A stretch of DNA of 64,000 nucleotides, taken from positions 1 through 64,000 of the forward strand of contig JAAILG010000063.1 of assembly GCA_012026655.1 (NCBI GenBank). Reading direction: 5' to 3'. This document shows, in pieces, positions 19,214 through 45,533 of this stretch (its first letter is position 1; each line of letters starts with the position of its first letter). Both the position numbers and the translations under genes were made by a program. The stretch is from Hydrolagus affinis (taxonomy: Eukaryota). Under the pieces are notes generated by a model that saw only the letters and a program-made list of their open reading frames with translations, did no database searches and was not told the origin of the DNA.

Positions 19214-19274
19214 CCGAAGACCTCCCCCTTCACTCACTCGACCCACCATAATTCGACCGCCAAAGTTGCCCTGA
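19214..19274 (+). CDS. DNM3: Dynamin-3 canonical terminal coding exon: SRRPPPSLTRPTIIRPPKLP*
   Basis: Pyrimidine tract plus ccag acceptor; matches human DNM3 SRRPPPSPTRPTIIRP; TGA at 19272-19274. Confidence 0.92.
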
Positions 19275-21922: not shown

Positions 21923-21962
21923 ACGTCCTGCTCCGACTATTCCCGGAAGATCTACTTCATAA
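21923..21962 (+). CDS. DNM3: Candidate distal alternative terminal exon of DNM3: RRPAPTIPGRSTS*
   Basis: ctaat branch-like motif, long pyrimidine tract and tag acceptor; phase-2 join gives a PRD-like RxxPxxP peptide; AATAAA at 22288. Confidence 0.65.
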
Positions 21963-24045: not shown

Positions 24046-26646
24046 GTGTTTTTGTAAAACAATTGGATGTGGATAAAGAATAAAAAAGGAAAGTTAAGAA
24101 GTACACCTCTTGAGGGAAATAATATTGATATTTATAGAACAGAGGCCTTATTCGAGTCCAGAGATTGAAGGATCCAACAGACTCATTTGAGATAAAACAT
24201 GATATTGGATATGGTGATAAAACACTGGCACAATAAAGAGATACTATTTGCCAAGATCATAAAGAATAGATGTAAAGGGGAAAAAAAGATCCAACATGGC
24301 CATTTAAATAAACAAGCAAACTTTTCTAAACCATTTACAACAGCAGTGAAAAGGGTAATTGACACAAGTATTGATGGCAGGTTTGGCAAGGGACCACTGA
24401 CTGTCAGTCAAGAAGGACAAGAAGGACCGTAAGGGAGTTGAGATAGCAGTTTACTTTTTTTTGGAAAAAGTTACATTAGCAGCTGATAGTCGATTTCCTT
24501 ATGGTATAAAGAAGAGATGATGTCAGCGCAGAATGTTTCAGACTGATGAAGATGTGAGATGCAACAGAATTCATCATGTAAAAATACAGGATTGAAAATG
24601 TACAACAACACCAAAATTACATTTATAGAGCGCCTTTCACGTCGAGAAGACGTCCCAAGGCACTGAGTGAACTGAGTGAATCTAATGGTCAGGCTTACTA
24701 TAATAATCCTTGCATATGGCTCTTTATCATGTCATTAAAACATCTCAAAATGCTTCATAGGATTTACAGTAAAGTACTATGACTGTATTTAGAGGTGAAC
24801 GTAACAATTTGCACACGGTAATGTCCCACAAACAACCATGCAATGAATGACGAACTTTATCTGAAGGATTGTTGACTAGGGCACTGGAAGAAACTCCCTT
24901 CTTTTTTGAATAGTGCCATGGGATCATTAATATCCACCTGAACAGGCAGACGGGATATTGGTTACAAAATTCATAAGGAATTAGGACTTGCACCTTTACA
25001 AAATATCAGTCACTTTACCTACCAATCTGAAACAGCAGAATAGAATAACAGTTTATCCCAAGAAGTAGGAGGAGAGGATTTCTAAGATCAGTGTAGTTGA
25101 CTGGTTTAATATTAATTGTTAAGGGGTATTCATCAAGAGACAGATTTTAAATTGGACGTTGGAAAGAACAGTTTTCCTGAGCATAACGTCAGAGATTACA
25201 TGATTGAAATGTTAAAAAGCCTCGCCTCTCTTACACAAAGGAATTTTAGCATTGCCTTTTTGTTAGGGACATTGGTGGCAAAGAGGTTTGTCAAATCAAT
25301 AGCACCATCTGTTTAATTTCATGTTATGTCATGGTTGAATGGGAGGTTTAATAAACATGAATAGCTGCATTGTTCCTCATACTGCTGTTCTCCATGGCTG
25401 TGTGACCAGCCATAACAACATATGAGAAGAGATAAGTTATTACATCCACTTTCGATTTAGATAGTCTGTGCTGGGCTTGAATGTTGATGTGAGATGTCTG
25501 ATGAATGAGCTTTCCAAGAACAACATTTGATTCGATATCCGACTATCACTGGAACAGATCTGGTCTACCCAAATCAGGTATAATTAGTCACTGCAAAGTT
25601 TCTGAACACAGGGGCTAGATACAGCATTCTGAGATCAGCTTGAAGCCAATTATTGCTATAAAATATGACTATTTTCATTTATTGACTGTAGAAATTGGGG
25701 AAGGGTGAATAAAAATCAAACCAGCCTTTTTTTTTGCCCAGGCAAATACTTCTTTACATTCTGCCACAAACTCGATTTTAACACGGGTATATAGATCAGA
25801 GTTTAAACAATTCTGTAGTTAGTGGCAATCCAATCAACAACAACACAATTACATCTGTATAACCCCTTTAACAGATATTACTGTAATTATCCCTTAAAGC
25901 AAAACTTCATTAAAAAATATATATCTTTCAAAAGGAACTGAAAGCAGAAGCCAGCAGTTGTGGGGATTGGGTTAAATATGGAGAAAAAAAGTTAATTTTC
26001 TGAATGTGCAGTTTCTGTCGTGGCACATTCTGTAACTCTAAGAATGGTTGAGAAAAATAAATGAGTGCAGAACCAGTCTGGATTTTAATCTTAAGTAATG
26101 TTACCCAGGTTGAGATTCACCCTCGGGAGATACAATGAGAAGGAAGAAAACTGGAGGAGAAATCAGCAGTGTGTGTGTGTGTGTGTTTATATATACAGTA
26201 CTGTACTTACGGTAATGTTTGCAAGCCATGAAACGTGCAAAACCAGACACTTACAAAAAACATTACAGTGCAGTACTATTGTTGGGCTGAAAATGGGAGT
26301 TACAGATTTCAGCACTACCCCCCTCCCTCTCTCTCCCCCTGCTCCCATTTTCACCTTGCATTATTTATGTACATCCCTGCAGCCATGGCAATTTGAAGTC
26401 ACAGGAGGGAGAGAGAAAGAGCCTTATTGGAAACCAGTGGATCATGACCAGCGCTGGGTGATTTGAAAGGAGATTTATAATTATACTTTCCAACAGTGGG
26501 TGGCATGGGGACGGGTACAGTCTAAAGCACAAGTCTCTGTGCACAGAGGGAGGGGGAATGTTGCCGCTTCTGTGAGGTTTAATTAAACCTGTGTTTTAAT
26601 TAATTCCCTCCCAGGGATTGCCCCTCCCTCAAAGATAAAAAAAAAC

Positions 26647-26832
26647 ATGGAAAGGAATGAACTGGCACCAGAGACCGAGGGACAGGCGTTTGTTTGTGAT
26701 GTGGAAACTGTGGGTCAGCTGAAGGTTCCTAATGTGAGTGAAATGAACCACAAAGCCATTGAAATTCCATGCAAATGTTTGGGGCAGCCTGTCACTGCTA
26801 GAGAGAGCAGCAGGTGTAACTCACAGATGAAG
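26647..26832 (+). CDS. Candidate gene X exon 1 (MERNELAP...SQMK; alternative start ATG at 26827)
   Basis: Open frame ending AAG|gtaaga, a strong phase-0 donor. Confidence 0.45.
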
Positions 26833-26881
26833 GTAAGACAAGTAACTCGTAATACGAAATTAGCCTAGAGATTGGTATTTT

Positions 26882-26883
<2 letters not shown>

Positions 26884-26915
<32 letters not shown>
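26884..26915. repeat. Compound (TA)n(GA)n microsatellite
   Basis: Read directly. Confidence 0.9.
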
Positions 26916-27989
26916 ATCTTACATAGCTTAATAATAGTGTAACATGTCTTTGAAATGCGTTTATTCAGCAGATTGGGATTTGAGAGGTATTTGATGAGGC
27001 AAATTAGACCATAGAATACAAAACAAAAATAGTTTAGACAACAACCTGTGGTCAGCATTGACCTTATAAACTTTGAAACACCTCCGACTAGGGAGGGATT
27101 GGAGCTAGACATAAACTAAATTCCTTGGGGTAGATGGGGAGGGAGGTAGAATTATCAAACATATGGTCTACCGTTTGCCTGAAACTTACCATATTAATTA
27201 TCAAGTTGGCTAGTTTTATGGATCTCAGTTTCAGTGCTATATTATTTCTAAATATTAAAAGCACCCACCCTTCACTGCTCACAGGAAATGCCTGAACACC
27301 TTTGGGAGAATGGAAGATCATTTTAGATCAATGGCACAGATTTTAGTTTACTGGCAAGATATCCCAAAGGGAAGTCAGAATGGAGCAACCCAGCCTTGAG
27401 CAATCAACAACAACAAAATTACTCTTGCAGAGCACTTTTCACATCAGGCAGACGTCCCAAGGCGCTGGAACAGACATAACAGCAGATGAGCTGACAAGAG
27501 AGACATGCATAATATCGTTTAAAAAGCACACACTTGAGGAAAAAACTTGAGAGGGTTGTGAGGGAACTCGCTCATCACTCCAATTCTACACCCACACCAT
27601 CAAATACCGAAAAGGAGCCTGTCGAGTTAAATGCCATTTGTGAATGTTTATGGCATATTGCTTTCATTGCTGCTAATTACTGGTGGATATTGCCTTTGAG
27701 AGCGGCGCAAGAAGGTGATAACACATTCACTCCAATGTCATCTACCCATCTGCACTTGTGGACATCCCCAAAGCTAAAATCTCAGAGAGGCTGCCAGATG
27801 TGAAATGGTTTAAATGACTGTGTAACACACCATATCTGTACCATTAATAAGTTAATATTACCTGTGGAAAATCCAGCTATATGCCTGTCCGCGTTCACTG
27901 ATTTGACTTTTCTCACTTCATAACTGCGTTACCTGCTTTTCAATACATTCTATTTCAGTGTTAAAGTGTGCATCCTCTTGCCTGTGCAG

Positions 27990-28126
27990 GTGGCTGTGAT
28001 AAATATTGATAAGATTCCAGATTCACCAACAGGGTTTATTGGCAGAGCAACCAATCGCTCTATGGGCCAACCTAACTATACCTTCAGCAATCTTGGTAAA
28101 AGTCAAAGACTTCCACCACCTGAAAG
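27990..28126 (+). CDS. Candidate gene X exon 2 (VAVINIDKIPDSPTGFIGRATNRSMGQPNYTFSNLGKSQRLPPPE)
   Basis: cctcttgcctgtgcag acceptor, AG|gtacgt donor; 137 nt, phase 0/2, open. Confidence 0.55.
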
Positions 28127-28554
28127 GTACGTACAAATGTGTAGAGGAGTTGTTGGTTGAGAGTAAAAAGGCATTAAATCAAATGAAATAAATATTATTA
28201 GTATTTTTATCAGTGCCTTCTCAAACTACTTGGATGCACACTCCACCTCACGCAGTCTATCTGAAACCTCAGTGTCTTGATTGACTCTCAAGTGTCTTCT
28301 AAACCTCTTATTTGTGCTCTGATCCATTCAGCTTTTTTCCACCTCTGTAGTATTGCCTGATGACCCCACCATTACCTCTGATATACTTCAGAGGAATAAG
28401 CTTTGGAATTCATCTTTTCTCAAAGTACAATAATAGCAAATCCAAACAGTGCCTGGGAATGAACATTTTCTCCCCTTGACAGTGATACCCAGTTTTGATG
28501 AAGGCAAATCATGTAACAGAAGTAGATGTGGAATTTTTATTAAAATATTAAAGT

Positions 28555-28731
28555 AATAATAAATTGGTCATTTCAATTCATGCCTGTTTGTGGGACACTG
28601 CTGTGCGCAATTGGCTGTCACGTTTTGCCCACGAATATACAGTCAATTCACTTTATAGTATATTCTGTGAAGTGCTATGAGAGATCTAGAAGACGTGAAA
28701 AACGCTGTATCAAATGCAAGGATTATTATTA
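28555..28731 (+). mobile_element. 5'-truncated SINE copy (similar partial copies at about 29735-29850 +, 33110-33245 +, 34640-34730 -, 48290-48405 - and 59052-59255 +)
   Basis: Core and tail homology. Confidence 0.75.
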
Positions 28732-28781
28732 TGTGTACTGCCGGGCCTACGTTTTAAGTCACTTACTTTCCCCCTGTGTAG

Positions 28782-28845
28782 CTTGCTCAATCCACACACC
28801 ATTCTTCAACAGAAGGAGCCATCTGCACCCTGCCTAAAGCAATGT
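28782..28845 (+). CDS. Candidate gene X exon 3 (SLLNPHTILQQKEPSAPCLKQC)
   Basis: ctttccccctgtgtag acceptor, gtgagc donor; 64 nt, phase 2/0. Confidence 0.5.
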
Positions 28846-29237
28846 GTGAGCGACTCGTATAATTTATGGTGCCTTTCCAGTTTCCCTATTGTACCTCGTT
28901 TATGAACTTGCCTCACCTGTGTCAGGATTTGTTCCTAAAGGTGCAGCAGTGAATGGAAACTCGCCATCTGAACATTCCAGTCAAAATGACACATGTCAAC
29001 ATAAGGGCACAGAGCATTCACTCCAATATGGACTACTGCATAAGCATGTTTTGCTATTGCTGTAAGGTTTAGCCTTTTTTAAAAATACTGTATTATTACC
29101 TGTATGTAGTACATACCTTCCTTGCCGTCTTTACACAGACAGAGGTTGCGGGCTAACGTGACCACGGCCACCTCTCTCGTAGTTGAGGCTATGAAAACCC
29201 AAATAAACCAGTTAGTGATTTCTCCTTTCAAACACAG

Positions 29238-29262
29238 CACTTCAGCTCGGCTGCATCATCCG
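29238..29262 (+). CDS. Candidate gene X exon 4, a 25-nt exon (HFSSAASS)
   Basis: tttctcctttcaaacacag acceptor, CG|gtgagt donor; phase 0/1. Confidence 0.45.
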
Positions 29263-30477
29263 GTGAGTCATTTCTGTTTTATTTCGGAAAAAAGTGATCG
29301 TGCATACCTTATTGTGGCTTGGATAGCTCGAGCTCTGCATTCTAATTATTTGCGAAGCCTCACTGAATGGTTTTGGTATTTGATACTGCAAATAGGCACA
29401 GTGCCCTCTTGGGTTAGCAAAAGAGAGCTTTCAGGATCCCTCTTCCTGATTGTTATTCATTGACTTCTACTGACAACACGCGTGTGTGCTGAGTAAGGCT
29501 GTGTTGCCTGTTTTAGTGGAATATTGTGCCAACTTACACTCTCCATAAAGAATTGTCAGTTGGATGGTGTACAGATGGACTCCTGGCAACAAGTACCCAT
29601 TGCCTTAAGCGTAAAAGGGAAGAAATTGGAGGGAAGTTTATAGGAGCTTTTAAATTTTTTTTAATAAGTAAGGATCATACTCCATGCAAATGAAAGGGTT
29701 TGCCATTTGATACAAGGAGGTTTTGTGCAGTGCTAGGTTTCGTCCACAAAATATACAGTCGATTAACTTTGCAGTATATTCTGTGAAGCTCTTTGAAACT
29801 CCTCAAAGATGTGACAAGTTGCTATATCAAATTCAATGATTATGATTATTTATTGTGTGGCTCGGTTTACACAGCCATATCGTATTTCTGTTAACCAAGT
29901 ACAATAACGATTAAATCAAATGGCCCAAGGAGTCGTCTTCACCTGAACTTGTATTGTAATCTTGTGCCATCTTTCTCATAGTTAGAGATAAATTGGGATG
30001 TCGTGGCAGAGAAATTGGGGCATGTGGGGCATCCCATCCCCTATGGGGAACCATATGAATCACATTATCTGTTAGCAGTTCCTAAATACACAAAATCGTT
30101 CAACCATTGTCACCTGTGTTCCTTTTGAAGCTTGTCTGATTCAAATCAAGCTTTGAAAATTTTCAAAACAGATCAGGATACACCTACTTACGAGGTCACA
30201 TAAACCAGCCTGATTTTATATATAATCTCTACGCCCCAAACTGACTGCTACAGCAACATACTCCATCTGGTGGTTTGGAAGTTAATTGACATCTCTTCCG
30301 AGTGGAACTGAGAGCCGGATAATTCTGGGATTCAAAGTTGTGATTAGTTAGTTGGAAAACCACCAGTTAAATTTTCTTTACAGTGGTCCATTTCTATTTG
30401 TACTCTGTCGCTGTTGGTAAAAGATAGTCTTAAAATTGTAAAACAATTATCTCTTTGGACCCAGTGCTTTTCCCCAG

Positions 30478-30592
30478 GAGATGAATTAAAGCTTGAAATC
30501 TTAAGTGAAGTTCAGCAGATGAAAAAGCTAATGAGTGATAAGAAACCTCCTCATTGCCACTCCTTGGTGAAAGGCCGGCTACTGAAAGCCAG
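30478..30592 (+). CDS. Candidate gene X exon 5 (GDELKLEILSEVQQMKKLMSDKKPPHCHSLVKGRLLKA)
   Basis: cttttccccag acceptor, AG|gtaaag donor; 115 nt, phase 1/2. Confidence 0.55.
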
Positions 30593-31336
30593 GTAAAGTA
30601 CTGAGGATCAAGTACAGAACAATAAAAAGGCTATAGTGTTCAAACATTTTCCCGTAAATTATTGTTTGTTTGCCTCAAAGCGCTTCACTGAATGAGTTAG
30701 TTTGAAGTGTTATTTAATTGCATGTAGGCAAAAACAGCACCCAATCTGTACCAGCAACATTTCACCATACATTTCCATACAAGTTACATGCTTTCAAATT
30801 TCAAAAGATATGTTTGGCAAAAACAACAACAAAATTATGTTTGTATAGCTCAGGCCTGTTGCATGTTCTTTGCCTCCTGCACTCCACTATTAGCAGTCAA
30901 GTTTTCAGCCACTATGTCCCTACCTTCTGAAACTACAACTCCCTCCTTAAAATCTCTTCACTTCTCCTCCTAAAGAAAGCTTTTGGTCATCTGTGACTAT
31001 AGTCACCATCCATCAAACCCACCAAATTCCCACAGTGCCTGCAAGGTGTGGGCAATGCCTTAGCAAAGCGATTTGAAACATTACCCAACATGAAGAGCAA
31101 CAACAACTAGCATTTATATAGCACCCTTCATGCCAGGTCGTGTCTTGGACAGAGTGCTTGAAAAGCTTTGTATAAATACTTATAGATAATTAAATACTTG
31201 TGCTGTAATGCATAAGTGCAGTTGTGTGCAAATTAAAAATGGAATTTATTAAGAGATCATTAAACTTTAGTATTTTAGTTTGTCTATAATGTGTTATGAC
31301 GGTAATCTGATCATGTTTCAACTGTTTTCCTGGCAG

Positions 31337-31481
31337 ATTGAAGCCTCTCTACCCGGTGGTTGATGAAGGACCAAGTATTGCTCAATGCAGAGGCATTTTA
31401 CCAGGTTATTTCAAAGCAATTCCTAATTGGAGAGTCAGAATTGTTGAGCAAAGTTATCATATTTGCTTGCACTGTATTTAA
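31337..31481 (+). CDS. Candidate gene X terminal exon (RLKPLYPVVDEGPSIAQCRGILPGYFKAIPNW...CI*)
   Basis: tgttttcctggcag acceptor; phase-2 join open to TAA; AATAAA at 32080. Confidence 0.45.
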
Positions 31482-31950
31482 GCACTAATTGTGCAAACTT
31501 TCAATTTTGATTTGTCATAGAAATCGCAAACTGCAACCGCAACCCAAGAATCTGTATAAATACACCTTATATAGATTCTGCGAAAGAGATGCTGATGAGC
31601 CTTTACCAGATGCCCCTCTGCTGTCTGCAGAAGGTAGGGGTGAATCTTTTCCTGAATAAGATTGGCAGAGCTTCAGACGTTACTCTTGTGGTTGCAACGC
31701 TCTTTCAGATCGCGATAACATTGATGAGCGGTTACCATATTGCTGGCACTGTATTTAAGCACTGATTGTGTGAACTTTCATTTTTCAATTTTCATAGAAA
31801 TCTGAAACTACAAATCCAAAGTCAGCTGAAGAGGTTCCATGAGCAGTTTGTCAGAAATACACATTTTATAGATTCAGCGAGAGAGATGCTGATGAGCATT
31901 CACCAGGATACGGTGATGCTGAATATTTTCCGAAATAACATTGCCAAATA
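31440..31950 (+). repeat. Diverged local tandem duplication with a period of about 280 bp
   Basis: gcactgtatttaagcact.attgtg..catagaaatc..tatagattc.gcga.agagatgctgatgagc occurs twice. Confidence 0.85.
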
Positions 31951-34900
31951 AGAAAATGCTGTAAAATATATATGACAAAAGTATCTGTGCTAGATATTGT
32001 TGACTCCCATCCATTTCATTAACACTATTGTTTGAAACCTTGTAAGCCAATATAGGAAATATTCAAACCTAATATAGGAAATAAAATAACAAAGTACTGT
32101 AACTTGGATTGAGAACTGAGAGAAACAAAATATAAATTATTGTTGTGACTGTAGGAATACTATGGAGGAACACAAACACCACAGATACCCAGATGGCTAT
32201 CGTTGATCTTACATCATCATAAGCAATGTAGTTGATCAACTGATACATGTATCAGCATGTATCATGACAGATCAACCTATGTACTAAATGACAAACCAAA
32301 CCGATTGATGTACCTAATCAAAAATTCTGCATCATTTCCTACCCTGGGCAGAACAGATCAGCAAAATCAGCAGCATTACTTTGGAGAGTTGGAACAAAAA
32401 TTAACTGAAATTCAGCAATTTGTTTATTCTGTGGAGAGTCAAAATAGGAGTACTAAAAGCATGATTTCACATTTTAAGAGTATTCTGAGAATATTTTCAC
32501 GGTTATGTAACACTGCCATCTGGTGGTATTAAGGCTAAATTGAAACGTTCAAATGGGGTGAGAAAGGGTCACACACAATTCAGTAACTGTGAGCATTTTG
32601 GTAGAAACATGATTCACTTGGATGATGAGATAGACAATATGGTATTTTCCTTTGAGGATAAATTTAACTCTTATTTTAAAAAAAAAAATACATTTCACCC
32701 TAGAAGTGAAACTGGAAAGTTTTTAATTGATAATTAATTTCCTCTGGGTGTTCTTTGGCAGTGCTGTATTATCACTTAGAAAGGCACTGAAAAGGGAAAT
32801 ATATGATTTTTAAGAGAAGCCATAATACATTTAAAAAATACATTTGTGGTGTTAGAATAGAGCTCTGGGCTCTAACTTGTGTGAGGGGTGCTATATAAAT
32901 GCAAGCTGTTGTTGTAGTGACAATTGGAGGATTTTAAAACCAAAGAACTTTCCATATTTAAGGAATCAAAGTGAAATGTTTCAGTAAGAACAAAAAGCAA
33001 AATGTACAGAATATTGCTGCTAGTGTTTTAAATAATTTGATTTCACAACATTAATTAATGTGTGTTTTACAACAAGCAGCTGTTTTTTACATGTGTGATG
33101 TGCAAAATTACTGTGCTTGATTGGCTGCTCCGTTTCGCCCCCAAAATATAGTCTTTTCACTTTACAGTATATTCTGTGAAGCGCTTAGAGATGTCTCAAA
33201 GACATCATAAGGCACTATATCAAATACAAGGATTGTTATTATTACTGCCACTCAAAAGTCTTTGCTGCACTTAAAAGTATTTTACAATATTTAGCAGTGC
33301 ATTTCTTACACAATTGCAATTTTTCTTAAACATAATTGGCAATACACATTAAGACACATGGAAAAAATTAATAATAGATCAAGATTAATTTTATTTCTGG
33401 TGCTTCATTCAATACAAACCATAAAACTTAAAATAAACACCAATAAAAGAGCATTCTGCTTACATGATCAGCTGGGTCACTTGGGTCAACATTTCAGTTG
33501 TCTAGAGAATTTGTAGCCATTTCACAAACATTATTGAAGGTAGAGTACAAAACCAGTCTGCATGACAGATACAGCTTTTATGTATTTTCAGGTGTTTTGT
33601 GAGTCTATGTGTGTCTCTCTCTACGTGAGTGATCATGTCTCTGTGTTTGAATGTCTGTGAATGTGTGTTTCTATGTGGTTGTGACTATCTATGCGAGTGA
33701 ATCTCCTCCTGTCTGTTTATGTGTCTTTGCATCTATGAATGTCTCTCTGACAAATCAATCCATAAAATACTTGCAACAGATTAGTTCATTTCAAACACAT
33801 CTAGAGTTTGTTGAACCGACAGGTGTGAAGCAACTGAATTTGCTATCCCAGTGAATTTCCAAACTATCAGTTTTAGTTTCAATATTTTTGTTGTGATTGT
33901 TGTATTTTCAACTGATGCAATTTACAGGTGCTGAATTTGGTGACTATCATTACAAGACACATTAAAAGCAAAATATTTTGTTCTTTTACAATTAAATGCC
34001 TGGAACTTATATCAGATAAGATTTGGCTAATATGTTCTATGCTACCAACTCATACATCACTTATGCTTCATATCAAAAGCAGATTGAATACAAATGAGGC
34101 ACTTTATTGCAAACCCAGTTGAATACACTATGTATTGGTTTCACAGCATGTACAGTATTTAACTTTGCAGTCTCATCCCTATGTACTCAATGAGGTGCCA
34201 TGCCATTCAGTGAGGCTTGGCAAATACTGTTTTCATGTGGGAGAAAAAAAGACCGCAACGTCCCTGAACTTTTGGACCGTAGTATTTAAACGATGAAAAA
34301 TTAACTTGGGACTTCATACTGACAGGAGCTTGGAAGACTTTATTTGCCCTTTTTGAAGTCTCTTTACGGAGGGCTTTGCACTAGGTGAAGCAGACGTAAC
34401 AAACAAATTAAGTAATTATTTTCGAATACATAGTGCTGGCTACCCCTAATGACACACAAATACCTGAGAAATCTCAGTATTTATAGAAAGGAGACATAGC
34501 CTAATAATGGTGGTTAGATTTTTTTAAAAATGTTTCACAAATTTGCCAAGATATTTTTCTCCTTGCAGTCAAGGTTAATAGTATTGTACAGATCTCTGGA
34601 TGATAATCTGTTTTTTTCTTACAGCAACTCTAATGACAATACTAATCCTTACATTTGATATAGCGCCTTATCATGTCTTTGAAACATCAAGGTGCTTGAC
34701 AGAATATACTGTAAAGTGAATTGATTATCTTTTCTGATGCAGAACAATAGGGAGGTTCAGTGTGAGGGAGAAAGTTCAGTTAGTATGGGGAAATTTTAAT
34801 GCTTCAGAACAGTTTAAATCAATTTAAACAAAATTATTGCAATTAATTGCAAAATTAATATCCTCTAACATCCATGTCACCATTCATCACAATTTAGAAA

Positions 34901-36058
34901 ACAGAACCGTAGCAAATGGTTATCCGGGTACAAGGATTTCTATAATACAGTAGTAATGATGGAATTTTACAAAAAAATTCTACTTCCATTGTTAAGTACA
35001 AAGACTACATATAAATATCTTCACTTTATTAAAATTAATAATACTGAATGAATTATTTGAGAATTTAACGGAATTCATGAAAAATATTCATAGAAGAATA
35101 TTAACACAATGATTATTGGTGTGGTCACAACCAGAACCTCCCTTAAAAAGCGAATTTACAATAAAAAGGCAAAAAGGGAATAATTTATTGTTAAAGAACA
35201 TTTCATGATTAATGAATAAAACCGAGGAAAATAATGTTGAGGGAAGGAAGAATTAAAATGAATCGCAAAGGTAAGTTAATTCAACCTTCAGTAAAGTAAT
35301 CTGGACCAGTGCCATGCTCACTCTGATTAAATATTTGGAGACATCATGGATCATGGTTTTATTTTCTTTTGCTGTAAAGTCTCAAGGTTTGACCCAGAAT
35401 GTACCAGAGGATGATGTAAATGACCAGGGCAGATTAGAAATTGGGGCTGTTAAGCGCAGAGGTTCAGTTATTGTTAAGAACACGCTGTTCTATTTCTGTG
35501 TGCATAATATTGCATATTATGCTGTTAACCTTCATGCTTATATTACAAGCTAACGTTAAATTCAGGCAGATCTGGGATATCTATGTGGGAACATGGGATT
35601 TATGTTACACTGAAGTCAGAAATATTGGCGGTACAATTAATGGGGTACCTTACCCATAACAGGAGTAGTCTTAACATTAAAGCTCGTGTTTCATCTGATT
35701 AAAGAAGTTCAAGCAATCAGATCAAATGTACATCAGACTTGTAAATAGCTATGGTATGTAAACCATCTGTGTATTGCAGCTCACGGAATATAGTACTGTA
35801 CATAATCAGTATTGAGAACACAATATTTCTTCAGATTATGTAATAAGTCTTATTTTGTAACAATTTTGCAGTCTGAAAATTACTTTTGTTACTAATTTAT
35901 GTAAGGCACTAACAATCATTCATTTTTTCTCCCAAAATAGTAAACTCAGTTCAGGTGGATTTCTATTCAAAGTTTAAAAAAAAACTCTGTCCACATCAAA
36001 AGAGAATGTTGCAGTGTGTAAGCCACCTTGTGTTACAGTAATAGTCACTTCCTCAGTG

Positions 36059-36277
36059 CTACGTCCTGCTTCTGCTGTCACTGCAAAATAGACTTCTCAG
36101 CATATACACCTGAAGCACCGATACTATGAGCATCACAGTCAGATTCACTGCAGACCATAGATTTACACGTTCATAATTGCCTTCTTGCAAGTTCCGATCC
36201 CGTGCTTCGAAGGCTCGTAACATTCCCTGAATCTGGCTGCTCCTACTCAGCCTGGCTTTCACGTTGTATACAGATTG
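36059..36277 (-). CDS. TMED5: TMED5-like (p24 gamma) exon 4: QSVYNVKARLSRSSQIQGMLRAFEARDRNLQEGNYERVNLWSAVNLTVMLIVSVLQVYMLRSLFCSDSRSRT*
   Basis: LRAFEARDRN motif, transmembrane helix and cytosolic tail; tttaag acceptor; 219 nt. Confidence 0.9.
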   Translation of the reverse strand, partial: QSVYNVKARLSRSSQIQGMLRAFEARDRNLQEGNYERVNLWSAVNLTVMLIVSVLQVYMLRSLFCSDSRSRT

Positions 36278-37119
36278 CTTAAAAACACAAAAAAATACAC
36301 AAATTATAGGACAAAATGGTGGCATTAGATTAATAGTGGCAGAATTTATACCTGGTTACTTAATTTGCTTCTTAAAATATGCTATTTTGTCATTTAAAAT
36401 AATGGTCTCCCAATCATTATTATATTTCACAGGCCAGATTTTAAAGTGCATTGAACCAGAAAGGTTTCCCTCCTCAAGCTTCCCCCCTATCCCTTTTGAA
36501 AGTAAGATTATGCTTGCTAGATTAACATTTGTTCCAATACATTTCCCAGTGTGGCTAAAATAACATACTCAATTCTGAACAGGTTCTAAAATGAGGCACT
36601 GGATTATCAATGACAAATAAAATGTAACTGTCACAACTAGAAATATAATCCTTGCAAAATGCCATTGCTATTTACACAAATTTTCTAATGTGTTTATTTT
36701 TTAAGTTCACATCATGATTCTCAAAGAAACACTTATTGAAGCTGCTTCAGGCTTTTCTAATACAGTATTTATCACTTTATTTCTACTCAAATACCCTACT
36801 CATTTTCCTGTACCTAATTCTAGTCATTATTTGTATAAATTTTAAAAGAAAAACTCTTTACTCATATTTTCCCTAGTTCCAAATATGGCATTTTTCTAAT
36901 AACAGTAGAAAATTTTCTAATGAACAAATAGTCCAAAGCAAGCAGTAATTAATTGTCAGCTAGCCGTGGGACCCACAAGACCATATCAATCTGATAATAA
37001 ATACACTGACACATTTGGACTGTACAGTAGAGTACTATATATGCATTTCGATTGTTTGAAGACAGGTCAACAATCGGGTCAACTGTACTGTAGTTTATCT
37101 CAAAGCAAAATGTACTTAC

Positions 37120-37303
37120 TAGAATATCCTGTAGTCTCATATCATGCAGTTCCCCTCCTGATACAAATTCTTCCCAGCTTCCTGTTGATTCGTTATTACT
37201 TTCCATGTTATCCAGGATAATTTCAAAGAAGATGATCTTCTCAGAGAGAGAACTGAATGTGTTGTCAAAGCAGAACTTATAGTCTCCATTCTCAGTCTCC
37301 ACA
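37120..37303 (-). CDS. TMED5: TMED5-like exon 3: VETENGDYKFCFDNTFSSLSEKIIFFEIILDN...DMRLQDIL
   Basis: GOLD-domain second Cys (GDYKFCFDNTFS); ttcag acceptor, gtaagt donor; 184 nt, phase 2/0. Confidence 0.92.
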
Positions 37304-37491
37304 CTGAAAAATGCAGGTTATTTTTTAGGATAATCTTCAAATATATTTGCAAAGTAATGCAGGAAGTGAGGGAGGAAAATTAATTTCTGTTACCGTCTCA
37401 TATTGTTTTACTGCAACACTGCACTATACATGTACTGTACTGTAAACTGGTAATGGAAAAGGACTTGAATTTGTACACTGGATTTTATAAT

Positions 37492-37640
37492 GTCCTGTAC
37501 CTTAGTGGTTAGAGTACACTCCTCGCAAGCGCAAGGACTTTGGTTCAATTCCTGGGCAGGGCAAAATGTTGGACATATGTGCTTACTCCACATGCTTCTG
37601 TTCACCTAGCAGAGGTGAAGTAGGAACCTGGTTGTTAGTT
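37492..37640 (+). mobile_element. tRNA-headed SINE with a different body (ctgttcacctagcag..taggaacctgg)
   Basis: Degenerate A/B boxes followed by a non-Deu body. Confidence 0.5.
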
Positions 37641-37867
37641 GCTTTTCTGGGGGTAATAATCACTTCAAATAATTTTTTGAAAAATAATAATTTGAACATT
37701 CAACAACAACAACAAATTATTTAGCGCCCTCCACTCCAGATGGCATCTCAGAGCGCATTCAATCTACGACTGTTTGTGGGACAATGTATGCAATTGGCTG
37801 CCACGTTACACCCACAAATGTACAGTACAGTCAATCAATTATGAAAATGTGTTAAGCGTTGATTTAC

Positions 37868-37965
37868 CTGTGAATCCCATCAGCTTTCCTCCGCTCAAAC
37901 TCCAGGATGTTTCCATTTGGTGCCTCCAAATAGAAATCCACATCTAATCCTGCTCCAGCAATCAC
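37868..37965 (-). CDS. TMED5: TMED5-like exon 2: [32 protein letters not shown]
   Basis: ctag acceptor, gtaaat donor; 98 nt, phase 0/2; GAGLDVDF and RKADG motifs. Confidence 0.92.
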
Positions 37966-38099
37966 CTAGAGAGGGAAATTGGATGCGCTTAAAAGGTTGT
38001 AATTGTTGGCATTAGTGCTTTAAGGAAAAAATAAACTTAATTGGGTGTTTAATCTCTCTAAAACAAGTAAGCATTACACAATGCCATTTTACAGGGCAC

Positions 38100-39245
38100 C
38101 TTCTACCCCTCTATAAAATTCACATGGACCATCTGCGACTTGTTCCTTCTCTTCCCCGACTTCACCATTTGCATCTCGGATCATGGATGTATTTTACAAA
38201 AGCCCACCAACTCCCACAGCTATTTGGAGTACACATGTCTTCTTTTTTCCTTGACCGAGGGTTCCATTCTGGTAGACGGAGCCTTAGACGGTGTCCGCTC
38301 TATTACCTGCACCTCTGCCTTCACCCATTCCCCCTCTTCCCAGAACCTTGATAGTCCTCACCTTCCACCCCACCAGCATCAATATCCAAAGGATAATTCT
38401 CTGCCATTTCCATCACCTCCAGTGTGACCCCACCACAAAGCATATATTTCCCTCCCCTCTCAGCATTCTGAAGGGTCTGTTCACTCCCCCATCAACACCA
38501 ACAGTCGCTCCCCTTCCCCCGGCACCTTCCCATACCAGCACAGGAGGTGCAATACCTGCCCTTTCACCTCTTCCTAGACCACTGTCCAAAGAAGTTTTTA
38601 TGTGAGACAGTGTTTTACATGTACTATCACCAATGTAGTATATTGCATCCCCTGCTCACGATGCATTCTTCTCTACATTGGGGAGACCAAACGCAGATTG
38701 GGAGACCGATTTGACAGAACACCTCTGTTCTGTCCGCAAAAACGAAAACCTACCAGTTTTGTGCCATTTCAACTTTCCTTCCCACTCGCAATCTGAGCAT
38801 CCACGGTCTCCTTTGCTGTTCCAATGAACCGCAGCACAAGCTTGAGGAACAGCACCTTATCCAACTGCTAGGAACCTTACAGCCCTCTGGCCTTAATATT
38901 GATTTCAACAATTTCAGGTCGTAACAGCTCACCTCCCCCTCTTCTGCAACCATTTGATCTGCCAATTTGGCAATTTCACTCTGCTTTGTTTTCACGTTAT
39001 TAACACCTCTTTCCGGTTTTGTTTCACAACATTAACATCTCTTTTATCATCTCCTGCCTTCTATCCAATTTTCTCCTTTGTCTTCCTTGCTCTGCCTCCT
39101 CCCTCTCTGTTAAACTTAAAAGCCTCTCCCTCCCAACATGCCCCAGTTCTGACGAAGGGTCGTGGACCTGAAACGTTGACTCACTTTTCCTTTCTCCATA
39201 GATGCTGCCTGACCTGCTGAGTGTTTCCAGCGACTTCTGTTTTTG
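38100..39245 (+). mobile_element. Degenerate Penelope-like element: RT C-terminal remnant, GIY-YIG endonuclease and 3' end with a hammerhead-like motif
   Basis: KPTNSHSYL; NVVYCIPCSRCILLYIGETKRRLGDRF; CTGACGA..GAAAC at 39149-39174. Confidence 0.88.
39143..39183 (+). ncRNA. Minimal type-I hammerhead ribozyme-like motif
   Basis: Helix I AGUU/GACU, core CUGACGA, helix II GGUC/GACC, GAAA, palindromic AACGUU, predicted GUU cleavage triplet. Confidence 0.55.
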
Positions 39246-40499
39246 TTTGCCATTTTATAGGGCACTGAATCAGAGTTCACTATGAGAACAAAGAAATTTA
39301 GTAGTACAGTGCTTTCACAATTTACAACAACAAAATTACATTTGTATAGTGCTTTCATGTCGGGAGGACGTCCCAAGGTGCCAAATTTACCAATTTATTA
39401 ATATAAATCTATCGCCAAAATGTTAAATTTACATGTTACAGCACTAAACAACTGGTGAATACTAAATCCACTTGCAGACTGTAGATTGTACTGAGGTAGC
39501 AGACACATTTCTGTTCTCCACAGATGTTTCTTATTTATAATATGAGAAAATTCTGGATTAATATCCCAAGGATTATTAAATAATACAATACTATACAATG
39601 TAAAAGAATCAGAAATCAATATTTTAAAACATTTCTGAATAAATAAAATCTTAATTATATTTGAACTTTCTTCATGGTAAATTGAGATTAAAAGGTTGAA
39701 TTTATTGACTGTTGGTCCTCCTGTTTCTATACCTTAATAGTTCTATGAAATAGCTGCTAAAACTGAACAGAAGCCCTGCTCAGTACAACAACCTGCATCT
39801 ATAAAACACCCTTCACGCCGGATGGTGTCTTGAAGCAAATTTAGAGTGAAAATAACACATCTGTATGCCATGTCCACATTCATTACACCTACTGCATCCC
39901 ATTATACTTTCTAGGCATGGTTGGTTTGCACTCCCATTCCCCGAATTAGTATTTCACCATGCTTGTGTATGAAATCATTACTAATTGGGGGCACAGCAAA
40001 TGGGAACATACACTTTTTAATGCTTTTAATATAACTGAAATGCTTGAAACCCATTACTCACCATAACAACTGAGCTTCTCTACAGCTGCAATACTCAAGT
40101 GCAATGAAATACTGTATTTAAATACTGTACAGTATTTAGATTATGTTAATAAAGGTAAGCTCAGAATGGAGTTTCAGAATTATTTTGCAGATTTCAGGTA
40201 AAAATAAGATGAAAGGTTGTTTGTTGCAGGGAACACCTCCTTGCAAATTGTATTGTAAACATTTTGTTAAGAGAAAGATTTTTAAACAATGTCCTTTTTT
40301 AATTTAAAAAAAAGGGAATCTCTGACAACAAGCAAGAAGACCCAGGATAGATTCCCGGGTGGGTGGAAACCTTAGGCAAGTTTCCTTACTCCAAAATGCC
40401 CGTTAGCAGTGAGTAGGAATCCAGAAGCTAATCGATTAGCAGATTGCATTCCGGGGAAAATGGTTCGTGCATCAGCCTGGCCTGGTGATAGCAACCTCT

Positions 40500-40770
40500 G
40501 ACATGCCAATGGAGTACTGAGGTGCCATCCTTCGAATGCGACATTAAACCGAGGTCCCATCTGCCAGTTCAGGTGGATGTTAAAGATCCCGTGGCACTTT
40601 TCGAAAAGAGAAGGGAGTTTCTCTCAGTGTCCTGGCCAATATATGCAACTGCCTGCCACGCTTTACTCCTCAAAATACGCAGTCAATCCATTTTACAGTA
40701 TATTCTGTGAAGCACTTTGAGACGTCTCAACAGCGTGATAATGCTCTATATCAAATGCAAGGATTATTAA
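40500..40770 (+). mobile_element. Older Deu-domain SINE (relatives at about 1473-1715 -, 2480-2731 +, 20950-21200 +, 24700-24960 -, 41085-41310 +, 52802-53010 - and 57075-57370 +)
   Basis: gaggtcccatctgcc..ttcaggtggatgttaaagatcccgtggcac..gggagtt is typical of Deu-domain SINEs; L2-type tail. Confidence 0.7.
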
Positions 40771-41334
40771 GTGTTTAATTTCATATTCTGTGATTTGCAA
40801 AAGACCCAAAGTTTAGTGGTGGTATCTCTCTTGAGCTATTGGGTCATCTCGGTTCACTCTGACCTTTTACCATAATGGTCACAATAACCTTTTTAATTTT
40901 TAACCAGGACTCCTGACACAGAGATACCTATTATTCCTAAGAATATCTTTTCATTTTCAATTCAACTAAGTAAAAACAAACAGCTCGAAGCTTGCCATTG
41001 TAAATATTGTTTGACTCTGCGGTTTTAGTTGCTTAACCTCCAGCAGTACTGTACGTCACAACACTCCCTGAAATCTCTATTATTTGAGGTGCTGTCCTGT
41101 TCAAGTGTATGCTAAAGATCCCATGGCACTGTTCAAAAAGAGATGGGACTTTTCCCCCGGTGTCCTGATCAATAGTCCACAGATTGGAACAAATATGTAC
41201 TCAAATTGGTATCATGTGTGGGTGGCTTTAAAATATACAATCAGTACACTTTACAGTAAATCCTGTGAAGCGGTTTGAGACCTTCTAAAATGAAAAGCGC
41301 TATATCAAGTACAATACATCTATATCAAATATAA

Positions 41335-41705
41335 CAACAAGAAACTTATATTTGTAAAGCGCCTTTCATGCTGGGAGAACATCGTAAGGTGCTGGGAAGT
41401 CAGTGTTTCGGACCCGCGCTGGTGATTGGGGTCAGGGAGGATGGAGTGGGAGGGGAGGAAGGTGATCAAAAGCACGGTTGTAGAGGAAGGTCTTGAAGGC
41501 GGCAAGGGTTGGGGCGAGGTGGAGTTCCAGAGGATGTGGCAAAGCAGCTGAAAGCCCGCCCGCCGATTGTGGAGCGGGTGAGGTGGGAAGGTGAAGTAGG
41601 CTGGAGCCCTCTAAGCGGAGTGGGTGGGCAGATTGGTTGGGGGTTAGTAGGTCGGCAGAAGTTGGGCAGGAATGAGGCCATTGAGAGCTTTGAAGGTGAG
41701 GGCCA
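41335..41705 (-). mobile_element. L2 3' fragment
   Basis: TIGGRAFS-type ORF2 end and L2 tail. Confidence 0.75.
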
Positions 41706-41876
41706 CTTATTATTTTATATACAGTATAGTGCATTTCTGCTCAGGAGTACATCTCAAAGGACTGCCCACAGAGAAAAGCCTTGGATGACACAATAATAAG
41801 AATCATCTTTACATTCGATCCAGCAACTTGCCGGTCAGGAGCACGTTTCAAAGCAATTCACAGGACAACATAGGTA

Positions 41877-43760
41877 CAACAACAACTTCGATTTATATAG
41901 CGCCCTCCACGCCGGACGGCATCTCAGAGCGCTTCACAATAGCGGATCCCGGGACCGAGCCAGGGGCAGGGGTAGAAAGGTGACCAAAGGCATGGTCGAA
42001 GAGAAAGGTCTTCAGCTGGGACCTGAAGCTGAGAAAAAAGGGGGCGAGGCGAAGGTAGTGAGGAAGGGAATTCCAGATCCTCGGGGCATAGTGGCTGAAG
42101 GCACAGCCGCCGAGGGTGGAGCGGAGGATTCAGGGGACATGGAGGAGGCCAAACCTAGTGGAGCGAAGGCAACGGGAGCTGGTTTGAGGAGAGAGATCAG
42201 AGAGGTAGGGGGGTGCAGAGGAGTGGAGGGATTTGAAGACAAGGGTGAGGATCTTGAAGTCGATCCTCTCTGGGATAGTGAGCCAGTGAAGTCTGGAAAG
42301 GACTGGGGTAATGGGGAAGCGAAGTTTGGTGCGGGTGAGTATGCGGGCGGCAGAGTTTTGAATGAGTTGGATTTTATGGATAGTGGTGGAGGGGAGACCA
42401 GCGAGGAGGGCATTTGAATAGTCCATCCGTGAGGTGACGAAGGCAAGGACCAGGGTTTCAGCAGCTTTTGGGGTGAGATATTGCCGGAGACGGGCAATCC
42501 GTCGGAGGTGGAAGAAGGCGGTGCTGGTGAGGGACTGGATGTGGGGGAGTGCGGTCCCACTGAGGTGGATGACGGAGGACAGGCGGTGGAGGAGGATGTC
42601 GTGGTCGACTGTGTGGATCGCAGCGGACAGGTCTAGGAGGATAAGGAGGCAGAGGGAGCCCAGGTCGCAGTCTCTGTATAGTGGGCAGGATGGAAACTGG
42701 ACTAGAGGGGTTTGAAGAGGGAGTGGGAGAAGATGTGGGCGCAGAGTTGGTTTGCAACAACGCATTCCAGTACTTTTGAAAGGGCAGGTTAGAAATAGGG
42801 TGGTAGTGGCTAGGGTTTGAGGGATCTAGGGAGGGTTTTTTTAAGGAAGGGGGTGATGGCAGCAGTTTTGAGGGGGGCAGGGACTGATCCTGTGAAGAGG
42901 GACTGGTTGATGATATCAGATGATATCAGTGGGCAGAGGAGGGGGAGCTGGGTGAGCAGTAGGTTGGTGGGGATGGGATCGAGGCAGCAGGTGGTTGGCT
43001 TCATGGAGGTGAGAGTGCGTGAGAGGGAGGAAAGAGAGACTGGGGAGAAGGAGTGTAGGAAGGGTGTCAAGGTAGGAGCTGATGATGGGGAGGGTGAGGG
43101 GGATGGGATGAGGGTGGTAGTGGGTGACGAGAGGCAGGAGGATGACGCTGCCTGGCAGATATTGTGGATTTTGGAGGAAAAAAAAGTCCATGATCTCCTC
43201 GCATTTTACATTTGAAGTGAAGATTGAGGAGGCCTGAGGGTGTGCGCGGAGGAGGTGGTGGATGGTGGAAAAGAGGACTTTGGGGTTGTTGTTTGCCTCC
43301 AGGATAATGTTGGAATAGTAGGCCGTTTTCGCACAACACAAGGAACGGTGGTAGCTGTGGAGATGCTCGAGCCACAGTTGGTGGTGAACCGTGAGGCCAG
43401 TTTTTGTCACTTGCGCTCGAGCAGCCGGGGTTGGCATTTAAGGGTGCGGAGATGAGTGTTGTACCATGGGGAGCGGGTGGGTTTGGAGATAAGACTTGGA
43501 TTTAAGAGGGACGAGAGAGTTGAAGATGGAGGAGAGGCGATAGTGGAGCAGCTGGACAGTTGCTTCAGGATCGCTGTGGGTGGAACACCAGAGGGGTAGA
43601 AGGTCAGAGGATGTGAGGGCTTCTGTGAGGGTCTCAGGGGTGAGACTTTTCCATGGGTGGAAAAGTACAGTTGAGGGCTTGATGGAGGGGAGAGGGATGG
43701 AAGAGGAGCAGGAGACAAGAAAGTGCAGTGACTGCATTTGTTGGGCTTGACGCACAAGAT
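41877..43760 (-). mobile_element. 5'-truncated, frameshifted L2-clade LINE in TMED intron 1
   Basis: ORF2/RT fragments in several frames (CCLDPIPT, LLILLDLSAA, QLIQNSAARILTRTK..ITPVLSRLHWL); (GTT)n 3' tail near 41877. Confidence 0.9.
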
Positions 43761-44045
43761 GGAATCCTCTAGCTCGGTGGTTAGAGCACTTGCTTCACAA
43801 GCGAGCGACCTGGGTTCGATTCCCGGCAGAACAAAACCTTGGGCAAGCTTCCTTACTCCGCATGCCTAATAATAATCCCTAAAAAAACAATAATAATTTG
43901 GTCACTCAATCCATGATCGGTTGTGGAACACGGATGTGCACAATTGGCTGCCACATTTCACCCACAAATATAGTCAATTCACTTTACAGTATTTGAGACG
44001 TCTAGAAGACGCGGAAAAGCGCTATATCAAACGCAAGGATTATTG
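43761..44045 (+). mobile_element. Full-length tRNA-derived SINE, same family
   Basis: Same head, core and tail as the 5527 copy. Confidence 0.85.
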
Positions 44046-44343
44046 GAGTTAAGATTTGTGTCAGACCACAGCCGATCGAAGCAGTGCCGCCAAGCTATTC
44101 ATTTACCTTAGTGACCGATCACGTTCAGAAACCTGCTAGATTAACTGCTAGATTAACCAACGGTCTGACGTTGGTTGAGAACTATAAGGGAGTTCCACCA
44201 CCAATGCACAATGCGGAGACATCACAATCACAGCACAATACGGTACGACATCAATAAAACAATACTGTATATATATTTTCCCTGAAAGGAAAGGTCTTCT
44301 CTGTGGGAGAACAGACCCTTCCCCCCGCCGTTGTTGTCCCCAC

Positions 44344-44520
44344 CTGATACTCTATTTCCAAGGTGGCTCCTTTCCTCATAGTTTGGTAGAAACATTGCTT
44401 CTGAGCCGCCGCCAGGGTGAATGTAAAGTCACTGTCCGAGGACTGCGAGAAACCCAGAGAAACGTGCACCTGGACCAGGTCGACGAGGAGCCAGGCCAGC
44501 ATCCAGGACGCCGGTCCCAT
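44344..44520 (-). CDS. TMED5: TMED5-like exon 1: signal peptide plus DSDFTFTLAAAQKQCFYQTMRKGATLEIEYQ
   Basis: ATG at 44520 in strong context (aagATGg); CAG|gtggg donor; spliced CDS of 678 nt encodes 225 aa. Family assignment is secure; TMED5 versus another paralog is less so. Confidence 0.9.
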
Positions 44521-44599
44521 CTTCAAACGGAGGGTCAACGGCGAGAGGCTCGAGGAACCCGAGCTGTTGGGGCGAGTTGACGGAGCCGACATTCACCTC

Positions 44600-45260
44600 A
44601 CAACTTGTGCCGTAACCACGTGGGCCAATCGCACTTCAAACCATCACTCTCTCTCTCCCGCCCCCACTCACTCAGGCTCCAGATTTCATTCATTTTTGCT
44701 GTTATTGTCAATCATTTACTCATCGACGTGAGGGGGTCAAAATCTTACGATGTCGGCGGCCCGGTGCCAGGCTCTCCAGGATTTGTGGTCCGCGTCTTCT
44801 CCCAACCAACGGCCCTTTTTTTTCTTTTGACGCGAGGTCCCGTCCAGAATACGATCCCCAACAGTGACGGACGCCGCACAGTAGACAAGGCTGAGGAGAG
44901 TCGTGATTGATTGACGGGGAAAGGTAGCCAATCGCATGGAAGAATCTTCGAGATCCAAAGCCAATCAGAGGGTGAGAGTGTGGGTAATTGTGGGCGGGCC
45001 CGCCCGGTGATGCCTGGCCTCTGATTGTTACGTCAGGAGGAAAAAGAGGGAGGAGTTTAGGGCAGCAAGACGTTTGGGTGTAGAGTTGAAGCGCGCAAGC
45101 GTGTTACGTAACAACTCCCCTCCTCCCACCCCCCCACCCCCGGCTATACGTCACCAGGCGGAAGCTTTTTCAAATCGGTGATGGAGTTCCAACTCGACAG
45201 CGTGAGGCTGTAACGGTCGCGAGTGCGGCTGCGCGCGCACATTCACGGGGACTAGGAGCG
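44600..45260. promoter_or_regulatory. CpG-rich bidirectional promoter between TMED5-like (-) and SUCO (+)
   Basis: CpG-dense; CCAAT at 44625, 44928 and 44961; GC box near 44992; CRE-like TTACGTCA 45028 and TACGTCAC 45147; TTACGTAA 45104; ETS core CGGAAG 45159. Confidence 0.8.
44619..44629 (-). promoter_or_regulatory. ERSE-II element (ATTGG-N-CCACG)
   Basis: Reverse complement of cgtgggccaat is ATTGGCCCACG, an exact consensus match. Confidence 0.6.
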
Positions 45261-45460
45261 GGTTTGGGGAGGGGGGTGGTGGGTGGTGGTGGTGAGAGAG
45301 GAGGAGGAGGAGGAGGTTAGGAGAGGTTTTCTCCGTACGGGAAGCACACGGGCTTTATTCATGGAAACTCTTGTAACGAACTGAGACGCTGGTCGTGGTG
45401 GCGGGCCGGGGTAGGGGGTTAAAGGGGAAACCGGGAGTCGGTCGGGAGAAGACTACGAGG

Positions 45461-45484
45461 ATGTCCATTACTGTGAAAAGATGA
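45461..45484 (+). other. uORF MSITVKR* whose TGA overlaps the SUCO start codon (AUGA)
   Basis: ATG TCC ATT ACT GTG AAA AGA TGA; the main ATG is at 45481. Confidence 0.7.
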
Positions 45485-45533
45485 ACCAGCGGCACGTTTT
45501 ATTTGTATGTTTGATTTTCTCGGTGTTATACTG
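45481..45533 (+). CDS. SUCO: SUCO exon 1 (signal peptide MNQRHVLFVCLIFSVLYW)
   Basis: TG|gtgagt phase-2 donor; similar to the human SUCO N-terminus (..LVSCLFLCSLVW); synteny with DNM3. Confidence 0.85.

Follow-up and report, generated by a model that had tools for sequence, protein, structure and literature searches.

A spliced, conserved gene between DNM3 and SUCO in the chimaera Hydrolagus affinis and its possible relation to C1orf105

A 64,000-nucleotide stretch of the Hydrolagus affinis genome (the window; contig JAAILG010000063.1, positions 1 to 64,000) carries on its + strand, downstream of a dynamin gene, a spliced gene for which we present a corrected model. An initial annotation, made from the sequence alone, had proposed here a protein-coding + strand gene after DNM3 and had read it as a diverged ortholog of human C1orf105. 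Spliced reads bear out the first part of that proposal, as do orthologs in a second chimaera and in six shark species; both spliced reads and conserved exons were looked for, and both were found. We regard it as practically certain that this is a real conserved gene. For the fuller reading, in which a spliced, single-copy, conserved gene encodes a disordered adaptor and is possibly the counterpart of C1orf105, our confidence is evenly balanced.

The RNA reads come from three raw single-cell runs (X2, X3 and X4), all of one sample, whose organism is coded differently from that of the DNA run X1. They were placed on the window twice, at 85% and at 97% likeness; at 85% the joint table was dominated by repeat-derived joints, and the joints given here come from the best 15 of the 46 at 97%, with minor isoforms possible among the rest. 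In X2, stranded depth at 85% likeness lies in the exon-bearing bins and is nearly nil in the introns (28 at 29249 against 0 at 29353). Five of the best joints are GT-AG joints of this gene, each oriented as + strand RNA: 26832>27990 with 20 reads (X2 19, X3 0, X4 1), 28126>29139 with 25 (23, 2, 0), 29262>30465 with 16 (14, 0, 2), 30592>31337 with 22 (22, 0, 0) and 31404>31521 with 29 (28, 0, 1). The strand assignment was controlled by the dynamin joint 12800>21923, which has the same mate orientation, and by reads in the 3' region of the downstream TMED gene, which have the opposite one. Summed over its joints, the gene has 106 reads in X2 against 2 in X3 and 4 in X4; since the dynamin joint shows the opposite library bias (2, 8 and 6 reads), the gene is strongly enriched in one library, and its expression is restricted or strongly uneven between libraries.

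Judged by its sequence, the gene is the ortholog of Callorhinchus milii LOC103180019, which is annotated but unstudied. With the first 37 residues of exon 6 (Table 1) as query, phmmer retrieved the 275-residue C. milii protein (XP_007893810) at an E-value (E) of 2.3e-7, and 192 of 263 aligned residues are identical, colinear and without a frameshift. RefSeq already annotates this ortholog, so the words 'hidden' and 'novel', as first applied to the gene, have to be withdrawn. A search with the core sequence returned five proteins among 186 candidates: besides the C. milii protein, these are three clusters from sharks and P0007, an unnamed Logan protein. The shark relatives (E 2e-38 to 3e-32; clusters spanning the six species; LOC144692781, LOC121289351, LOC132818491, LOC122554793, XP_072367659-61 and GCC35786.1) and the C. 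milii protein are colinear with the gene along its whole length. Exon 1 has the same start as the C. milii protein and, aligned with it, two short gaps; in the sharks the N-terminus is shorter and unrelated, and the tails vary. The points at which shark isoforms part coincide with the 3/4 and 5/6 exon junctions seen here by RNA. All six genome matches to the query protein P0001 fall at the gene's locus, indicating a single copy in what is a fragmented assembly. Word-based homolog searches with the last exon and exon 2 of the initial annotation were blank although orthologs exist, and blanks from such searches carry little weight. P0002, a Schistosoma repeat protein (E 4.5e-5), was rejected as it has no match to the family profile.

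The exon chain of the initial annotation fared less well. Its six GT-AG exons, phases 0,2,0,1,2 and 223-amino-acid frame are all present as sequence, but as a transcript they are only partly right. Among the best joints, two of its five introns have a match (26832>27990 and 30592>31337) and three do not; six of its ten splice sites are used in RNA, while acceptor 28782, donor 28845 and acceptors 29238 and 30478 are unsupported. The acceptors used are 29139 and 30465, and an extra intron, 31405-31520, through which the annotated last exon reads, is removed; from residue 108 onwards both chain and phases are incorrect. The proposed exon 3 (28782..28845, +) was rejected as a main exon, being skipped by the 25 reads of 28126>29139; it has the weakest donor, with five of nine consensus letters, and lies beside a short interspersed element-like repeat at 28555-28742. 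This exon and the read-through tail 31407-31478 have z scores of -0.6 and -0.5 to C. milii and at most 2.1 to any of five homologs, against 24-38 to C. milii for the RNA-supported pieces E1-E6. That the 223-residue product is the main protein, for which its open frame and GT-AG sites might speak, is extremely improbable given the 29 reads that remove intron 5, the want of homology in its private pieces and an alignment score against C. milii of 548.5 where the RNA models reach 901.5-935.5. The read-through of intron 5 does resemble shark model P0006, which diverges at the same point, and the tail could be a minor retained-intron form. Here, a hand-built exon chain stayed open and seemed phase-conserved, yet was half wrong.

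The corrected chain has phases 0,2,0,2,1,(0) and stays open for 295 amino acids; each internal exon has exactly one stop-free frame, and the frames link in phase. Dinucleotide shuffling (2000 sequences) gave frames of at most 160 amino acids, and random mosaics of genomic sequence (4220) gave at most 249; none in either set reached 252, so the length of the corrected frame is far beyond chance. Three other readings, namely a spliced non-coding RNA, a pseudogene in decay and a read-through extension of DNM3, we consider very improbable. In their favour, the transcript extends a long way 3', with an apparent antisense overlap of the TMED gene, and selection between the two close organisms is not significant: coding differences to the RNA organism, among 40 of 90 rows, comprise four silent, four replacing and one stop-to-stop change, with an omega of about 0.3-0.4 that leans towards purifying selection without reaching significance (P 0.08-0.18), a point against a coding gene. 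However, a protein identity of 73% to C. milii without a frameshift and a motif kept across the chimaera-shark split argue otherwise, and read-through from DNM3 is opposed by RNA depth near zero upstream of 26300 and by the lack of any joint from the dynamin into the gene among the best 15 of 46, the dynamin joint reaching its own last exon at 21923.

Table 1. Exon structure of the gene in window coordinates
Feature	Position	Strand	Remarks
Exon 1	26600..26832	+	approximate 5' end; translation starts at ATG 26647; 62 codons, donor in phase 0
Exon 2	27990..28126	+	137 nucleotides, phase 0 to 2; RNA joints on both sides
Exon 3	29139..29262	+	124 nucleotides, phase 2 to 0; takes the place of exons 3 and 4 of the initial annotation
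Exon 4	30465..30592	+	128 nucleotides, phase 0 to 2; contains the helix predicted best and the first part of the core motif
Exon 5	31337..31404	+	68 nucleotides, phase 2 to 1; RNA joints on both sides
Exon 6	31521..31633	+	acceptor by RNA, donor 31633 inferred; 28/38 residues identical to C. milii
Exon 7, putative coding part	31798..31842	+	14 codons and TGA; would give a 266-amino-acid protein
3' untranslated region	31843..33920	+	end approximate; AATAAA at 32080, 33432 and 33442

An in-frame stop lies upstream of the coding part of exon 1, in which 34 of 62 residues are identical to C. milii; as C. milii shares the start at 26647, the ATG at 26827 favoured earlier (163 amino acids) is not preferred. 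Identity to C. milii is 35 of 45 residues in exon 2, which carries a conserved V-I-x-I-D-x-I-P block (z 11-13 to three sharks), 33 of 42 in exon 3, with its conserved INHL-x-x-S-x-FK block, and 35 of 42 in exon 4. It rises to 22 of 23 in exon 5, where the core motif LKPLYPV-x-x-[ED]-x-PS-x-x-x-CR-x-IL is found; the core motif has z scores of 20-25 to all four chondrichthyan representatives, and exon 5 reaches 17.5 even to the distant P0007. At the 5' end, RNA depth is 0 at 26311, 1 at 26486 and 8 at 26613. A CpG island is absent there (observed/expected 0.27), and a scan for RFX X-boxes gave no excess (174 against 168 +/- 15), a site with two mismatches at 26379 being given no weight. Seven reads of X2 carry a backward joint from 26421 to 25833, with ten purines in between, possibly a repeat artefact.

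The 3' end has more than one possible form. If exon 6 is left unspliced, the frame extends to a TGA at 31763-31765, and a form of 295 amino acids with the last intron retained may exist; the stretch added in this way, 31634-31762, does not resemble C. milii (z 0.3). We infer a sixth intron, 31634-31797, giving 266 amino acids, from a good donor and acceptor, from a weak match of exon 7 to the C. milii C-terminus (5 of 14 residues, z 2.7) and from RNA depth, which falls from 43-44 at 31539-31570 to 7 at 31764 and recovers to 17-20 at 31878-31932; its joint is not among the best 15 of 46. A tandem duplication (74% over 190 bases) relates window positions 31440-31690, the end of intron 5 and exon 6, to 31720-31950; the second copy provides the acceptor of the putative exon 7 and still matches C. 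milii residues 239-257, though beyond the stop. In the DNA run X1, seven bases are deleted immediately before that acceptor (31789), one change in exon 3 (29249) replaces an amino acid, and one further change falls in the 5' region (26613). The AATAAA at 32080 is present as claimed, but since RNA continues beyond it (depth 7-14 at 32109-32584) it is not the only 3' end, and in repeat-free bins the stranded X2 depth stays at 12-20 up to 33920. In X2 only, + strand RNA with a depth of 2-20 also crosses the 3' part of the minus-strand TMED gene (33520-37500), which has the appearance of either a tail-to-tail antisense overlap with TMED or further exons.

Four chondrichthyan proteins of the family are basic (isoelectric point 9.1-10.3) and have no hydrophobic segment. 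For the C. milii protein, AlphaFold gave a predicted local distance difference test score (pLDDT) of 46.9 and a predicted template modelling score of 0.15, low values which, from a 12-row alignment, may reflect shallow depth and not disorder; helices were placed at residues 121-145, 166-184 (in exon 4, pLDDT up to 76), 217-220 and 241-258. In ESM Atlas, a shark protein has a pLDDT of 0.36. The product is thus predicted to be mostly disordered, with three long helices and no membrane segment. Short blocks hold most of the conservation, which is highest at C. milii residues 197-225: among four representatives, residues 201-225 have 19 of 25 positions invariant, whereas the first 125 residues have 0-5 in every 25. 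None of 12 family members has a Pfam match, PDB sequence searches gave nothing significant (best E 0.23), and two shark proteins in ESM Atlas gave no usable feature match and structural template modelling scores of at most 0.30. DUF3967, suggested on exon 4 below the cut-off (E 0.013-0.018), was rejected, being absent in all 12 full members.

P0007, a 372-residue protein from a single 1424-base contig, matches a chondrichthyan-only profile built without it at E 1.3e-8 and shares the FKQS, SP and G-x-L-x-K-x-x-LKPLYPV...EGPS...CRGIL blocks. Its core is 26-34% identical, against 51-55% between chimaera and sharks, and its ends are longer and acidic. It is a true relative, so the family likely extends beyond cartilaginous fishes.

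That the protein acts through its C-terminal motif seems to us probable, though well short of assured. Because one nearly invariant block sits in a variable, likely disordered chain, we propose that the basic product works as a cell-type-restricted adaptor, which would bind a partner through the conserved C-terminal motif of about 30 residues. The motif stops precisely at the donor of exon 5, and it is only past this point that shark isoforms vary; hence the core appears protected and the tail free.

The relation to C1orf105 begins with position. The order is DNM3 (+), the gene (+), a TMED5-like gene (-) and SUCO (+): dynamin GED exons lie upstream on the + strand, p24/TMED exons downstream on the - strand, and beyond the window (C63:64567-89043, +) follows a mid-protein SUN-domain gene which, from its signature and layout, we take to be SUCO. 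With SUCO also following, the C1orf105-like position fits better than the initial annotation knew. Taking the human order and strand of DNM3, C1orf105 and SUCO to be as we presume, the gene occupies the C1orf105 interval, between DNM3 and SUCO on the same strand. The dynamin is assigned to DNM3 from PDB ranks (DNM3 ranks first on one exon and ties with DNM1 on the other) and from published neighbours, one paper listing Pigc, Tmed5 and Suco beside fish Dnm3 (PMC4177693) and another placing human DNM3, PIGC, C1orf105 and C1orf9 together (PMC3573227). Human C1orf105 and mouse 4930558K02Rik are, like the gene here, small, single-copy, uncharacterised and located beside DNM3 and SUCO; in contrast to the human locus, a TMED gene follows here and PIGC lies outside the interval.

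Two of the echoes of the human protein that had been pointed out, DKIP and GPS...RGIL, fall in family-conserved blocks. Published primers, translated by eye, give L-K-A-S-V-P-K-F-D and I-H-Y-R-L-P-I-L (PMC7436996; PMC12620476), confirming short human stretches at the places of these two echoes; the former has K, V and D in register with the K that precedes, and the V-A-V-I-N-I-D that follows, the exon 1/2 junction. C1orf105 has no evident counterpart of the invariant KARLKPLYPV stretch. From the exon 1/2 block to the G-P of the core motif there are 134 residues here and presumably about 132 in human C1orf105. The phases here and the human set, which we take to be 0,2,0,1,2,1, can be reconciled by the absence of one phase-1 intron; alignments based on the motif and on the introns, however, do not agree.

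We hold the orthology of the gene to C1orf105 to be close to an even proposition, perhaps slightly under. Flanks, strand, size, the single copy and the restricted expression speak for it. Beside the shallow alignment behind the low pLDDT, several results weigh against the combined reading. With a curated cut-off of 27 bits for PF15081 (DUF4548), and with HMMER filters that drop most matches above E 0.1, DUF4548 matched none of nine exon pieces and none of 12 family members at E<=10, the comparison having been proposed with the initial annotation; a six-frame search of the H. affinis genome found none either, its control likewise being without a match. Homolog searches returned no C1orf105 protein and no tetrapod protein, and all family records listed are named 'uncharacterized' or 'hypothetical', none 'C1orf105 homolog'. 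The matched phases 0,2,0,1,2 rested on false exons and are not those of the RNA, and two further echoes fail, FKAI being intronic and MERNEL absent in sharks. All three RNA runs, moreover, stem from one sample. We do not assign the gene to DUF4548.

In a different history, to which we give a substantial chance somewhat below even, the gene belongs to an old family that has nothing to do with C1orf105. Such a family would have survived in cartilaginous fishes and in at least one lineage further away but vanished from mammals, and C1orf105 would have arisen in, or moved into, the same interval independently. The want of DUF4548 signal in 12 of 12 members would fit this, as would a core detectable at 26-34% in P0007 while no tetrapod protein is retrieved, and an interval that is not static, with a TMED gene here and the sole PIGC-family match on another contig. 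However, flanks and strand are the same, size is similar and the gene is single copy in both, and the two best echoes lie in family-conserved blocks. Furthermore, the search behind the tetrapod blank needs exact 5-residue words and cannot reach 20-25% identity.

Under the boldest reading, to which we give a chance just short of even, the family would be ancestral C1orf105: a germ-cell gene held between DNM3 and SUCO since the jawed-vertebrate ancestor and diverged beyond detection by hidden Markov models in amniotes, with the motif shared from chimaeras to P0007 as the working core of a human contraceptive-target candidate. According to one report, C1orf105 is male-reproductive-tract-specific and without a paralog (PMC7436996), and the accessible parts of two others give no mechanism for it (PMC12620476; PMC10298883). 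A germ-cell role for the present gene is possible, but we hold it only tentatively. Male germ cells as the cell type and a sperm or cytoskeletal structure as the partner, the least certain step, would follow only if the C1orf105 link holds. A search covering few subscription journals found no literature on DUF4548, LOC103180019, NM_139240 or h1orf105, and no paper on C1orf105 evolution appeared by title among the matches listed.

The neighbours have features of their own. Two alternative last exons can be proposed for the dynamin: one, with a short proline-rich ending (21923-21962), is joined to 12800 by 16 RNA reads, and the other, a DNM3-like ending at 19214-19274, is intact, its joint not among the best 15 of 46. 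The sole PIGC-family match in the assembly, on another small contig (C109424:89-274), is apparently interrupted by an intron. In bony fish and human PIGC is a neighbour of DNM3 and its coding region is intronless, and PIGC may be a retrocopy that reached the DNM3 locus in bony vertebrates. The TMED gene (36059-44592, -) mixes what we take to be features of TMED5 and of TMED1; elsewhere in the assembly there are further last exons of TMED1/5 type (60-67% identity), and the gene may represent a distinct paralog that the mammalian locus has lost. A CpG island at its 5' end (44200-45500; observed/expected 0.86, GC 0.55) is likely a head-to-head promoter shared by TMED and SUCO.

In conclusion, RNA reads have allowed us to correct the model of a chondrichthyan gene that is annotated but unstudied, and the conserved motif of its family, which has no Pfam entry, is now delimited. 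If the link to C1orf105 is true, a human testis-specific gene of unknown function would date to the jawed-vertebrate ancestor, and about 30 residues of its likely core would now be named.

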